Shown piece by piece: positions 4,021 through 41,260 of a stretch of DNA of 44,102 nt. This stretch comes from a virus. A model generated the notes under the pieces. That model did not search any database. It was given only the letters and a program-made list of their open reading frames with translations, and was not told the DNA's origin. A program made the position numbers and the translations under genes. The stretch lies in UHGV virus genome UHGV-0016039, one strand, 5' to 3'. Positions within the stretch are counted from its first letter, which is position 1. Each line of letters begins with the position of its first letter.

Positions 4021-6308
4021 AAGACTTCGAACGCCTATTTCTCGACACAGAGACATTCAGCGATGTGGACCTGAAGAAAGTCGGCGCTTACGCCTACGCA
4101 GAACACCCGTCAACCGAGATTATGATTTGCACCTACGCCATCGACGAGGGCCGCGTGCAGACATGGGACGCCACTGAATCCCCCACGATGCCGCGTGAAC
4201 TACGCAAGGCGCTCCGCCATGTAACCCGCAAAAAAGCAAAAATAGTGATGGCGAACGGCCTCCTGTTTGACCGCCTGGTTATCCGTGAAAAGTGGGGCAT
4301 TGACCTGCCGGTAAGCCAGATCGAAGATACCATGATTATGGCCTTCCGACATGCGCTGCCGGGTGGCCTTGATATGCAATGCCAGGTGCTGGGCGTGGAC
4401 GCAGAGCACGCGAAGGATAAGGCGGGCAAGGCGCTGATTAAACGATTCTGTAAGCCTACCCCTAAGACCTACAAAATCCGCCGCTACACGCGCGAGACTC
4501 ACCCGGAAGAATGGGCTAAATTCCTGCGCTATGCCGCGCTGGATACTATCGCAATGCGTGAAGTCTACTGGCGCATACCGGACTGGGGCAACTCCCCGAA
4601 GGAAGACGAAATCCTGCTTATCGACCAGTTGATTAACGACCGCGGTTTCTATGTGGACGTTGACCTAGCTAACGCCGCGATCAAGGCGGTGCAGGTGCAT
4701 AAAGAAGAATTGAAGGAAGAAGCCTGGGAGCGTTTTGGCGGTAAGCTAACCGGCAACGACTTCCTGCCAATCCTGCGTGATATCGCCCCTGCGTTCACTA
4801 TTCACAACGCGCAGAAATCAACGCTGAATGACTTGCTGGAAGACCCAGACTTCCCCGACGAGGGCAAGGTGCTCATTGAGATGCGCCTCGGTGCGTCATC
4901 AACGGCATCGACTAAGTACAATCCGCTCGTCAATGGCCTGTCCGCCGATGGTCGCCGCCGTGGTTGTCTTCAGTATGGTGGGGCAAAGCGCACGCTACGC
5001 TGGGCCGGTAAAGGCTTTCAACCTCAAAACCTGGCGCGTGGCGAGTACAGCGACGACCACGAAGGGAAGATTAAACGCCGCGAGGGTGAAAGCGACGTCT
5101 CGTTTTGGGTCCGGTCGCACATGCTCACCAACGGCATCAACTCCCTGTTACGCGGGACCGCACACTGGGCGTATGACATATCGAAGCTAACGGCATCGAC
5201 CGTTCGCGGGTGCATTATTCCTGCGAAGGGTAAGAAGTTTGTCGTAGCGGACTACTCCAACGTGGAAGGGCGTGGCCTTGCCTGGATCGCTGGCGAGAAA
5301 ACAGCGCTCATGGTGTTTAAGGCCGGTCGCGATATCTATTGTGAGACTGCCGGTAAGATGTTCGGCCTGGACCCGGACTACATTAAAGCCAACCGCAAGG
5401 ACTTACGCCAGATCGGTAAGGCGTGCGAATTGGGACTGGGCTATGGTGGCGGCGTCGCGGCGTTCTTGCAGTTCGCTAAAAACCTGGGCCTCGACCTTTA
5501 CACTATGGCGGACGTGATGAAAGGCACGTTCCCGGATCACATTTGGGCGGCGGCGAAACGTGGTTATGAGTACGCTCGCATTAACGAAGCGAAGCGCCCG
5601 CCGAAGCCGGGCAAGAAGGACGAGCGCCCAACATACATACTGCCGAAAAACGTATGGCTTACTTGTGACGCAATCAAACGTATGTGGCGTGAGGCTCACC
5701 CGAAGACGGTAGCCTTTTGGGCCGAGCTTGAGGACGCTGTGTTGTGTGCAATCCGCAATCCGGGCAAAGCATACTGGGCTGGCGCGAACGTTCGCCCGGA
5801 CGGTAGAAAAGCGCTCAAGATTGTCCGTACGAAGGCGAAGCACGACCCAACCTTTGACGAGGAGCGCGACGACCCGAACGCCGCGGGGTGGTGGTTGAAA
5901 ATTGAGTTGCCGTCGGGGCGCATCATGAGCTACCCCGGCATCGCGCTGTCTGTCACGACCGAGATTGACGAAGACACCGGCAAGAAGCGCACCAGCACAC
6001 GCATTAAATATCAGGGCGAGAATCAGACGACGCGCCAGTGGGGATTCCAGTATACCTACGGCGGCAAACTGACGGAGAACATCGTACAGGCGTTGTGCCG
6101 CGATATTCTCGCATGGTCCATGCCTGGCGTTGAAGCTGCGGGGTATAAAATCGTCCTGTCGGTGCATGATGAATTGATCACAGAAGTGCCGGACACCGAC
6201 GACTACACTACCGAGGAACTTTGCGCGCTGATGTGCGACCTGCCTATTTGGGCGAAGGGCTTCCCACTTGCCGCCGAAGGCGACATCATGTACAGGTACA
6301 GGAAGTAA
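4017..6308 (+). CDS. DNA polymerase, family A, with 3'-5' exonuclease domain
   Basis: N-terminal LFLDTETFS exo motif; RQIGKACELGLGYGGG (motif B K...YG); VHDELITEV (motif C). Confidence 0.92.
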   Translation: MKDFERLFLDTETFSDVDLKKVGAYAYAEHPSTEIMICTYAIDEGRVQTWDATESPTMPRELRKALRHVTRKKAKIVMANGLLFDRLVIREKWGIDLPVSQIEDTMIMAFRHALPGGLDMQCQVLGVDAEHAKDKAGKALIKRFCKPTPKTYKIRRYTRETHPEEWAKFLRYAALDTIAMREVYWRIPDWGNSPKEDEILLIDQLINDRGFYVDVDLANAAIKAVQVHKEELKEEAWERFGGKLTGNDFLPILRDIAPAFTIHNAQKSTLNDLLEDPDFPDEGKVLIEMRLGASSTASTKYNPLVNGLSADGRRRGCLQYGGAKRTLRWAGKGFQPQNLARGEYSDDHEGKIKRREGESDVSFWVRSHMLTNGINSLLRGTAHWAYDISKLTASTVRGCIIPAKGKKFVVADYSNVEGRGLAWIAGEKTALMVFKAGRDIYCETAGKMFGLDPDYIKANRKDLRQIGKACELGLGYGGGVAAFLQFAKNLGLDLYTMADVMKGTFPDHIWAAAKRGYEYARINEAKRPPKPGKKDERPTYILPKNVWLTCDAIKRMWREAHPKTVAFWAELEDAVLCAIRNPGKAYWAGANVRPDGRKALKIVRTKAKHDPTFDEERDDPNAAGWWLKIELPSGRIMSYPGIALSVTTEIDEDTGKKRTSTRIKYQGENQTTRQWGFQYTYGGKLTENIVQALCRDILAWSMPGVEAAGYKIVLSVHDELITEVPDTDDYTTEELCALMCDLPIWAKGFPLAAEGDIMYRYRK

Positions 6309-6586
6309 TGACACCAGAAGGCAAGATTCAAAGTCACCTGATGAAACGGGTGAAAGAGGTCGGCGGATTCTGCCGCAAACTGGCATGGGAGGGACGCGCA
6401 GGTGCGCCCGACCTGATTATCATAATCAACGGCATCATAGTATTCGTCGAAGTGAAGCGCCCCGGAGGAAAACCGAAGCCACACCAGGTACGTGAGCATG
6501 AGCGAATGGTCCGCCGCGGTGCTGACGTTCGCGTCATCGACAACATATCCGACTGCGATTTATTGGTTGCTGAATTGGTCGCATAG
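6308..6586 (+). CDS. VRR-NUC domain nuclease
   Basis: ATG 6308 overlaps PolA stop (TAATG); GAPDLIII..VFVEVKRPGGKPKPHQ motif. Confidence 0.7.
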   Translation: MTPEGKIQSHLMKRVKEVGGFCRKLAWEGRAGAPDLIIIINGIIVFVEVKRPGGKPKPHQVREHERMVRRGADVRVIDNISDCDLLVAELVA

Positions 6587-24548: not shown

Positions 24549-24617
24549 TATGCAGTCCCCTTTTTTATGCAGTTGCCGATGGATATTGTATCAGCGATTT
24601 CAAAACAAACCTTATTC

Positions 24618-24932
24618 AGTCTCAGACGAGGGGGGCCATTGACCCCCGTCTAGTCTGAAAGACTGGGGTGCTGTCCCGCTGTCCCGATCGGCTAAAAACC
24701 GCGGCAGCACTGGCGGGGACGGGGTGCTGTCCCGCTTTGTCCCGCCCCTTGTTTGTCCCGCTTTTTGTCCCGCTTACTTTATGCAATAAAACTGCATATA
24801 TATGCGTATTTATGGGGTGAGACAAAACGGGGCGTCCCGCCTGTCCCGTTTTGAGTTTATGCAATGAAAGTGATTAGATATGCGGTTTTACAGAGGCGGG
24901 ACAAAACGGGACGTCCCGCCTGTCCCGCTTCA
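24618..24932. repeat. composite repeat copy A: GC hairpin, GTCCCGC/GCGGGAC iterons, TTTATGCA-N-TGCAT palindromes, internal ~75 bp tandem duplication
   Basis: near-identical to 41078-41260; at least 8 GTCCCGC copies. Confidence 0.7.
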
Positions 24933-25609
24933 TTATGCGGGGTTCTGCTGCGCCATTTCATCAAGCGCGATTCGTTCCATTAGCTTGATATCTTTAAACG
25001 CGCGCTGCTCGTTTTCGATACCGTGCATCTTAAATAACCACTCCAACACGCCGTAGTCGATGCCGTATGCGCCACCAAATCCGGTGCGCCATTGCGTGGC
25101 GCAATCTGTAAAGACTGCGACTACCTTCGCGTTGTCGGGCCATAGCGCAACAGGCGGACAAACATCTTCGGGGGCCGCACCCCATAAACTTGCTGCTAAA
25201 TCTTCGGAGGGGGGCGGCGGGCCATAAAAGCGTCGCGCCGCCTCAATTAGTTTTTTTCACGCAACCCCATCAGTTCGAGATAGTACGACGTGTGGAACAC
25301 ACCGAACGCGCGGGGATAGTTGACCACCAGGCGGCGGACGTTCTCCGCGTTAAATTCGTCCGGCAGATTCCAGCCTTCAGCGACGTGCATGATGGCCTCA
25401 ACCATAACGTTAAAGCCGTCCGGGTCATTGTCGTCATATTCCGATAGCTTTCGTTCGGTGTCCTGCATGGTCTGCGAAAACTCGTCGATAGGTCGGTGGC
25501 GGACGGTAAACGTCATCTTGCCCGGTTCGTTCTCGCCAGGGCGCGGGATCTCAATCGGCAGCTTAAAGGTTGGCTTAGGGTCAAGTGTGAAGAGTGGTGC
25601 TTTAGCCAT
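24933..25609 (-). CDS. tail assembly chaperone G-T fusion, product of predicted -1 ribosomal frameshift (105-aa T extension)
   Basis: slippery A_AAA_AAC at 25250-25256 in G frame; -1 frame open for 105 codons to TAA at 24933-24935. Confidence 0.6.
25247..25609 (-). CDS. tail assembly chaperone, lambda G-like (0-frame product)
   Basis: ATG 25609 (ORF track starts at GTG 25657); acidic protein between major tail and tape measure. Confidence 0.75.
   Translation of the reverse strand: MAKAPLFTLDPKPTFKLPIEIPRPGENEPGKMTFTVRHRPIDEFSQTMQDTERKLSEYDDNDPDGFNVMVEAIMHVAEGWNLPDEFNAENVRRLVVNYPRAFGVFHTSYYLELMGLREKN
25250..25256 (-). other. -1 programmed frameshift slippery heptamer A_AAA_AAC
   Basis: seven consecutive A (T on + strand at 25251-25257) ending G ORF as cgt gaa aaa aac taa. 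Confidence 0.65.
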
Positions 25610-25623
25610 CGTAATATTCTCCA

Positions 25624-25647
25624 ATAAAAAGGGGCCGTGCTGGCCCC
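25624..25647 (-). terminator. rho-independent terminator downstream of major tail protein gene
   Basis: ggggcc-gtgct-ggcccc followed by ttttt on - strand. Confidence 0.5.
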
Positions 25648-25677
25648 ATATTATCACTCGCTATTTAAGCCACCAAA

Positions 25678-40918: not shown

Positions 40919-41077
40919 CCAATATTAATCACGCGTATGAAAAAGTTGATCGCTATCTGCTGAATCTGCAAACCGCATTTTTCACTTTCCATTCTGCAAC
41001 TCGCATTGGTTGCCGAGTTCATCGACGACCGCAATTTGCATCATGTTGCCGTGCGGTATGCAATCCTGGATTTTATG

Positions 41078-41260
41078 CAGTCTCAGACGAGGGGGGTGCC
41101 AGACCCCCCGTCTAGTCTGAAAGACTGGGGTGCCGTCCCGCTGTCCCGCTCCTCTGGAAGCCGCGTCATCCGGGGCGGGACGGGGGTGCTGTCCCGCTTT
41201 GTCCCGCCTCTGGTCTGTCCCGCCTTTTGTCCCGCTTGTTTTATGCAGTAAAATTGCATA
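41078..41260. repeat. composite repeat copy B (hairpin, GTCCCGC iterons, ATGCA-N7-TGCAT palindrome)
   Basis: near-identical to 24618-24800 except for a 35-bp substituted core. Confidence 0.7.

Follow-up and report, generated by a model that had tools for sequence, protein, structure and literature searches.

The tail locus of the virus genome UHGV-0016039 carries, at the end of a short tail assembly chaperone gene, what is very probably a programmed -1 ribosomal frameshift site of the lambda G/G-T type, at which the chaperone G would be extended into a G-T fusion protein. The window, i.e. the whole stretch of DNA that was analysed, is 44,102 nt long, and by its sequence the source phage is an Escherichia coli Dhillonvirus; the 1.95-kb stretch around the site shares 94-95.5% DNA identity with many Escherichia Dhillonvirus phages (Teewinot, Pubbukkers, mckay, bob and others), and 159 phage records match it. 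A lambda-like frameshift had been proposed in a preliminary description made from the letters of this DNA, and the gene order, the protein families, the phase of the heptamer, the coding character of the -1 frame and the conservation of the junction all fit that reading. The features on which the argument depends are the following, in the order in which they are transcribed:

26403 to 25678, minus strand: major tail (tube) protein gene, upstream of G (PF08813, E 3.6e-32; phrog_584).
25609 to 25247, minus strand: G-like tail assembly chaperone gene, 120 codons and TAA, with a product of 13,961 Da (PF08748, Phage_TAC_4).
25259 to 25257, minus strand: TGA of the -1 frame, directly before the heptamer, read from the sequence.
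25256 to 25250, minus strand: slippery heptamer A_AAA_AAC, in X_XXY_YYZ phase relative to G, read from the sequence and invariant in 55 of 55 junctions of relatives.
25249 to 25247, minus strand: zero-frame TAA of G, abutting the heptamer, read from the sequence.
25250 to 24933, minus strand: T extension in the -1 frame, 105 sense codons and TAA (PF08809, DUF1799; phrog_680).
25242 to 25213, minus strand: candidate stimulatory hairpin, GGCGGCG (25242-25236) pairing with CGCCGCC (25219-25213) around a 16-nt loop, from the local fold and comparative data.
24548 to 21906, minus strand: tape measure protein gene, downstream of T, 880 aa (PF06791, E 7e-43; PF09718).

All the genes of the tail locus (major tail, G, T and tape measure) are read from the minus strand. 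Their order, with T between the genes for the major tail and tape measure proteins, had been claimed without recourse to any database and is borne out by the profile matches, where PF08813 is followed by the chaperone and then by PF06791/PF09718 on the one strand. T is separated from the tape measure gene by a gap of 384 nt that is non-coding and rich in repeats. An Rfam search of the entire window at gathering thresholds returned no matches.

When the fused product was searched against the profiles of tail assembly chaperone families, the G part matched PF08748 and the -1 extension matched PF08809. In both cases the profile is covered from end to end: G aligns over its residues 1-120 with positions 1-124 of the 124 in Phage_TAC_4 (E 1.4e-23, 83.9 bits against a cut-off of 21.1), and residues 143-219 of the fusion align with positions 1-80 of the 80 in DUF1799 (E 1.4e-20, 73.7 bits against a cut-off of 26). 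These were the only two families found in a Pfam scan of G and T at E <= 0.01, in which the families of lambda gpG and gpT were not matched, and the fusion had no meaningful sequence match among solved structures (best E 0.84). In PHROGs, G belongs to phrog_569 and T to phrog_680, and both families are labelled 'tail length tape measure protein', which is a mislabel.

The preliminary description had placed the region at 24933-25657, and of these two limits the 3' one stands while the 5' one does not. Position 25657 is merely the mechanical GTG of the open frame, and the real start of G is the ATG at 25609-25607, with a GGAG 9 nt 5' of it. The segment 25657-25610 holds a terminator-like hairpin at 25647-25631 (GGGGCCAGCACGGCCCC, followed by the T-run TTTTTATT). 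This hairpin and T-run, taken together with the ATG at 25609 and its GGAG and with the same coding sequence in relatives, argue that 25657 is not the start of G; this 363-nt G coding sequence is annotated in phages JLBYU37 and Opt212.

At its 3' end, G reads on the minus strand CGT (25261-25259), GAA (25258-25256), AAA (25255-25253), AAC (25252-25250) and TAA (25249-25247), within the longer context ...CTG ATG GGG TTG CGT GAA AAA AAC TAA TTG AGG... as divided in the G frame. The heptamer A_AAA_AAC that had been noticed at 25250-25256 is thus indeed present at the end of G, in the phase of the zero-frame codons. After the TGA at 25259-25257 the -1 frame continues as AAA AAA CTA ATT GAG ..., and the translation of T runs LIEAARRFYGPPPP...DEMAQQNPA, from CTA (25250-25248) to GCA (24938-24936), before the TAA at 24935-24933; translation likewise confirms the open frame of 105 codons that had been claimed. 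Because that TGA sits upstream, the stretch in which a shift could lead from G into T is limited to 10 nt, which is the whole of the overlap between the G and T frames and which contains the heptamer. The run of A at the heptamer is 7 long in this phage (25257-25251).

That T is a protein-coding extension is apparent from the pattern of substitution. Among 17 distinct Dhillonvirus G-T sequences, aligned without indels, the variable sites of T are distributed 22/9/70 over codon positions 1/2/3 of the -1 frame, and the ratio of synonymous to nonsynonymous codon differences is 272:68 in the -1 frame compared with 48:289 in the zero frame and 24:315 in the +1 frame. The region is therefore conserved as protein in related phages, in the -1 frame only, and the other two frames contain 4 and 5 stop codons. 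The assertion that T has no start codon of its own is correct for codons 1-67, which contain no ATG, GTG or TTG, and fails further on, where GTG occurs at codon 68, TTG at 69 and ATG at 75, 91 and 99. Counted over codons 1-67 alone, the ratio is 172:34 for the -1 frame, as opposed to 30:178 and 5:204 for the others, so that the start-less segment of T is a protein on which purifying selection acts in the -1 frame and in no other, and its conservation as such implies that T can be reached only from G. Similarity in tblastn searches begins at the first codon after the slip, even in relatives at 35-43% identity. When 1.84 billion representative proteins were scanned in full with T in HMMER, 1,096 relatives were retrieved, and none of the best 150 of these, which are 38-150 aa long with none above 150 aa, is an in-frame G-T fusion, which argues that T is reached by recoding throughout the family. 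A sequence search with the fused G-T as query gave two 125-aa G homologues and no fusion, an outcome that reflects a word-index effect and not absence.

The junction itself was compared over a sample drawn from two IMG/VR scans and GenBank loci, consisting of 103 loci (the window included) with 55 distinct junctions, in which the identity of G to that of the window ranged over 39-100%. In all 55 distinct junctions AAAAAAC is followed directly by a stop codon and T lies in the -1 frame, the stop being TGA in 30, TAA in 24 and TAG in 1. The open overlap in the -1 frame varies from 10 to 235 nt, and in every case the heptamer forms the final seven bases of G; it is invariant, and wobble positions nearby vary. 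With the arrangement identical in every distinct junction and a -1 frame that bears the substitution signature of protein, the junction is far beyond chance, and the conserved unit, a heptamer in phase, is the signature of tandem tRNA slippage. The T1/Tls-like and other relatives have 6 A only (GTA, GCA or ACA before AAA AAC). Ten further, more distant loci were examined at the junction, where G_GGA_AAC and a stop are found in phages of Ralstonia, Pseudomonas, Vibrio and Xanthomonas, A_AAA_AAC and a stop in BEK3, Snitter, JLBYU07 and cyanophage S-CBS1, CAA AAG and a stop (an A_AAG site) in Pectobacterium phage Pappous, and the non-canonical GCA AAA GTT TAA in Klebsiella phage KL. The stop adjoins the slip site in 9 of these 10 loci, the exception being Klebsiella phage KL, with its stop one codon further on. 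In one IMG/VR locus (L079), a prophage remnant, G is present without T, an integrase-like ORF is next to it, and the motif has decayed to AAAAAAT.

On this basis the following course of events can be envisioned. Most ribosomes would end at the TAA at 25249-25247 and release G, of 120 codons and 14 kDa. A small fraction would slip one base back on the A_AAA_AAC at 25256-25250 in a tandem slip, where peptidyl-tRNA-Lys would move from AAA to AAA and tRNA-Asn from AAC to AAA, so that reading would resume at CTA (CTG where the stop is TGA) and take in 105 codons of the -1 frame. The predicted G-T fusion has 225 aa and 25.6 kDa, with the junction ...GLREKN-LIEAARR...; the mass of ~25 kDa given earlier is correct as a calculation, the exact value being 25,595 Da. 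If the proteins work as in lambda, the tape measure protein would be coated by the G part and the major tail protein brought in by the rare T (DUF1799) part, and neither G nor G-T would be expected to stay in the virion; in lambda itself an excess of G-T is harmful.

Two routes to T that dispense with a ribosomal shift, and one variant of the shift itself, have to be weighed against this reading. RNA polymerase could add one A within the A7 run (25257-25251), in which case the mRNA would itself encode ...REKK-LIEAARR... with no shift by the ribosome. Such transcriptional slippage is a documented alternative route to products of this kind (Atkins review, PMC5009743), and here a single inserted A in the 7-A run would give the identical downstream frame. 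What the relatives keep, however, is the phase and not the length of the run, which is 7 A here, 6 A in the T1/Tls-like phages and 3 A in the members with G_GGA_AAC, and slippage by the ribosome, not by the polymerase, predicts the strict phase with the G frame seen in 55 of 55 junctions. Moreover, the homopolymers on which bacterial RNA polymerase slips productively are usually about 9 or more bases long, of which the run of 7 falls short, and we consider this route highly improbable. Slightly more improbable still is that T is a separate protein, begun at an internal start (the GTG at codon 68 or the ATG at codon 75) or by termination and reinitiation at the stop of G, the heptamer being incidental. 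In favor of it, GenBank contains T as ORFs of 38 aa or 31 aa, the cluster representative (P0006) is a 38-aa call, and in this phage an ATT overlaps the stop codon (TAATT). The 38-aa fragment, though, comprises only about half of the 80-position DUF1799 profile, the internal starts are not preceded by a Shine-Dalgarno sequence, and the 67 codons ahead of the first start-type codon are those shown above to be conserved as -1-frame protein (172:34), with homology that reaches the first post-slip codon in distant relatives; nor would an incidental heptamer be expected to stay invariant while neighbouring wobble positions vary. Reinitiation at the ATT was rejected, since the equivalent codon in relatives is not start-like (ATA, AGG, AAA, ATC, AAG, GAA). 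The GenBank fragments are explained by annotators having used the start-type codons from T codon 68 onward.

The third possibility leaves the product unchanged and concerns the moment of the shift. Here the ribosome would shift after translocation, with the stop codon in an empty A site and the release factor slow to act, so that the P-site tRNA-Asn would move from AAC to AAA with tRNA-Lys in the E site, CUA would be read, and the stop would be an integral part of the signal. The stop adjoins the slip site in all 55 junctions, with all three stop codons represented, and again in 9 of the 10 distant loci, even where the heptamer has changed, and since P/A-site shifting on AAC-ending heptamers is inefficient in E. 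coli (no more than 0.9% even with a strong pseudoknot), an additional stimulator would be sensible. Stop codons 3' of a shift site reportedly modulate -1 shifting in E. coli, as Horsfield et al. are said to have described in 1995, and stop codons drive +1 shifts in structural genes of Listeria phages. Against this, the adjacency of the stop could equally be ancestral and be kept by selection on the length of G and on its ...(K/G)N C-terminus, and in Klebsiella phage KL the stop lies one codon further on (GCA AAA GTT TAA). We regard a post-translocation shift as possible but less likely than not to be how the site works, and the tandem slip on the heptamer, giving the same G-T fusion, is the reading that we carry forward.

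The candidate hairpin downstream of the heptamer has a GC stem of 7 bp and begins at +8, i.e. 7 nt after the heptamer. Its local fold has a predicted energy of -16.6 kcal/mol compared with -9.6 +/- 3.3 in 44-nt control windows of the same locus, 3% of which match it, but a longer fold of 93 nt around the site is no better than that of shuffled sequences (z = +0.73). Synonymous variability over G and T is lowest from the slip site to about +37, where windows of 12 codons have 1 variable third position, compared with 62-67% of third positions variable overall; the controls for this rate were drawn within G and T, the major tail gene being unusable owing to an indel in the intergenic spacer. The stem does not vary among the Dhillonvirus sequences and therefore offers no covariation at the level of the genus. 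In T1/Tls-like phages a stem is found at the same offset with another inner sequence (GGCGGUU...AACCGCC; -16.1 kcal/mol, z about -4). Across 22 lineage representatives, RNAalifold kept four base pairs (columns 15-18 with 41-44) that show compensatory changes. Pair 18:41, for instance, is UA in 9, CG in 7 and GC in 6 and is never broken, and column 15, a wobble position of the T frame, stays G across five codons (GAG, CGG, CAG, GCG and ATG). The 7-bp helix scored above all 500 shuffles and all slid controls in paired cells and covariation score. Over the family as a whole, 4 of the 7 stem pairs hold, with pair 17:42 broken in 5 of 22 and pairs 19-21 failing, and of 21 lineage representatives, 11 have a downstream segment that folds more stably than 90% of control windows, with nothing unusual in the other 10. 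The support for the hairpin thus comes from the shorter local window and from the comparative data, and a function for it is plausible but unproven. An upstream Shine-Dalgarno-like stimulator was also considered and was rejected because the wobble base of the GGN codon varies; the sole G-run, the GGG codon 8 nt upstream, is GGG, GGA or GGC among close relatives and is thus not conserved.

The yield of the shift is probably low. In E. coli reporters (Sharma et al. 2014, PMC4066793, Table S3), A_AAA_AAC shifted at 0.163% with no stimulator, 0.189% with the IS911 stimulators and 0.739% with the IS3 pseudoknot, and G_GGA_AAC behaved alike (0.164%, 0.222% and 0.888%), while the G_GGA_AAG of lambda gave 0.277%, 3.80% and 43.0% in the same three contexts (PMC4066793). 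That A_AAA_AAC is a weak shifter with little response to downstream stimulators counts against the frameshift reading. The PF08748/PF08809 family uses heptamers on which little shifting occurs in E. coli. Either the amount of G-T required is far below 1% of that of G, or the surrounding sequence enhances shifting. The adjacent stop codon and the GC hairpin may raise or tune the level of shifting. A more far-reaching idea, which we offer tentatively and hold to be rather doubtful, is that the signal of this family is a cassette of three parts, consisting of an AAC-ending heptamer, an obligatory adjacent stop and a hairpin at +8, where slow termination would set the ratio of G to G-T. If true, it would explain the preference of the family for heptamers that shift at <1% over the shiftier AAG-ending ones of lambda.

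A literature search found no description of a frameshift in Dhillonvirus and no evidence of a fusion protein there, and DUF1799 was mentioned in one paper only. A joined or slippage coding sequence is absent from all 16 GenBank records that were sampled among Dhillonvirus, Drexlerviridae and other relatives, and T is either missing from them or present as a fragment, a 'hypothetical' or 'DUF1799' ORF of 31-38 aa. Pipelines based on PHROGs give G and T alike the wrong name 'tail length tape measure protein', and the GenBank records carry fragments of T, so the main value of the finding is practical, in that correct annotation would give a complete set of tail assembly genes for Dhillonvirus.

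The lambda G/G-T chaperones (Levin, Hendrix & Casjens 1993; Xu, Hendrix & Duda 2004, 2013, 2014; summarised in PMC5009743) are similar to the pair described here in lying between the major tail and tape measure genes, in consisting of a short ORF followed by a start-less ORF in the -1 frame, and in having the heptamer near the end of G. By expectation the likeness would extend to a fusion of low abundance and, by analogy, to a G that binds the tape measure protein and a T that binds the tail tube protein. The two systems differ in the heptamer, G_GGA_AAG in lambda compared with A_AAA_AAC here, the latter shifting about 5- to 50-fold less in E. coli reporters with stimulators, and, unlike in lambda, the stop here abuts the heptamer and a repeat-rich gap of 384 nt lies between T and the tape measure gene. 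On its sequence, then, the pair is a functional analogue of lambda gpG/gpT and not a member of their sequence family.

True homologues are found in the tape measure chaperones of the T1-like phages (Drexlerviridae), with identities of 39-42% in G and 35-39% in T, for which a conserved frameshift has been described in a genome announcement (PMC4319613). They share A_AAA_AAC with its stop, the -1 relation and a candidate hairpin 7 nt downstream, and differ in having 6 A and not 7, in the inner sequence of the hairpin (GGCGGUU...AACCGCC) and in that T adjoins the tape measure gene with no long repeat gap. In Acinetobacter phage vB_AbaS_Loki, AAAAAAC adjacent to a stop has been proposed for the chaperone gp12/gp13 (PMC5313236); the adjoining stop is as in the present case, the host and the phage lineage are other ones, and the Loki case is itself a prediction. 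Outside phages, A_AAA_AAC (cluster A_AAA_AAC_1) is a proven -1 ribosomal frameshift site in E. coli in insA-insB' of IS1 (PMC4066793). IS1 thus offers the same heptamer in the same host, with low efficiency and no established stimulator, but makes a transposase and not a chaperone. Its zero-frame stop is not known to be directly adjacent to the heptamer. The two AAC-ending heptamers of the PF08748/PF08809 family recur in the g-t tail chaperones of haloarchaeal viruses, A_AAA_AAC in HCTV-2 and G_GGA_AAC in HCTV-1 (PMC5009743), whose hosts are archaeal. Considering these systems together, the kind of frameshift is already thoroughly known, and what is new is an unannotated case of it in Dhillonvirus and nothing categorically new; the residual novelty lies in the family-wide link between a weak AAC-ending heptamer, an adjacent stop and a candidate hairpin at +8, which suggests termination-assisted shifting.

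Junctions departing from the standard form were found at several of the related loci compared. Within the chaperone family, two members are non-standard at this point: the junction of Klebsiella phage KL (MN379832.1, L105:540-580) reads GCA AAA GTT TAA, without a canonical heptamer and with the stop one codon later, and that of Pectobacterium phage Pappous (L110:870-900) reads CGT CAA AAG TAA, which is an A_AAG tetramer site. At a third locus (L079:1201-1600, IMGVR_UViG_3300010279_000018), a G homologue of 43% identity ends GAA AAA AAT TAG, and the T homologue is absent after it, an integrase-like ORF standing in its place. This locus resembles a prophage remnant, and in this single case the loss of T accompanies the decay of the heptamer.

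None of the 16 GenBank records inspected from Dhillonvirus, Drexlerviridae and other relatives (OK272488.1, OL770278.1, NC_019419.2 and 13 others; loci L001, L002, L022, L023 and L103-L114) annotates a ribosomal-slippage CDS, and T is either absent from them or given as a 31-38-aa fragment called 'hypothetical' or 'DUF1799'. In PHROG-derived annotation G, like T, carries the label 'tail length tape measure protein'. Source labels raise a separate matter, since MG065648.1, 'Campylobacter phage A144', is recorded as a Campylobacter jejuni phage and carries at 6255-6569 a T domain 99% identical to that of the window's E. coli Dhillonvirus. This identity, together with a total of 21 matching 'Campylobacter' records in the phage collection search, suggests that the set so labelled includes mislabelled or contaminating coliphage sequences.

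Upstream of G, one further feature probably bears on its expression:

25631-25647, minus strand: hairpin resembling an intrinsic terminator, GGGGCCAGCACGGCCCC then TTTTTATT, located after the major tail gene and before G

It falls within the mechanical GTG-started ORF from which the preliminary description took its 5' limit, 25657, and it probably reduces transcription of the chaperone relative to the tail tube protein.

In the gap downstream of T, and at a second place in the window, the following features were identified:

24549-24932, minus strand: gap of 384 nt from the T stop to the tape measure ATG, non-coding and repeat-rich
24622-24864, minus strand: 80-aa ORF with a TTG start, inside this gap and overlapping the GCGGGACA array
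41075-41258: second location in the window, sharing repeats with the gap

The 80-aa ORF, for which Pfam and PHROG searches returned zero matches, is probably not a gene. Counted over the window, GCGGGACA occurs in 14 copies against 2.1 expected, and these form two clusters, at 24672-24928 and 41142-41235. A module of ~190 nt is present at both locations and consists, in order, of ATGCA(G/A)TTTTAYTGCATAAA, four copies of GCGGGACA spaced by 10-16 nt, two copies of CGGGACAG and an extended GC hairpin, CAGTCTTTCAGACTAGACGGGGG...CCCCCCTCGTCTGAGACTG. Farther 5', GGGACAGGCGGGACGYCCCGTTTTGTC is found twice. In GenBank relatives the gap is annotated as 'terminator x2' or 'repeat_region'. The gap may be a regulator-binding array, or a promoter or terminator module, lying midway through the tail operon. 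T1-like phages also have an intergenic repeat, which is asymmetric and different from that of the window (PMC4319613).
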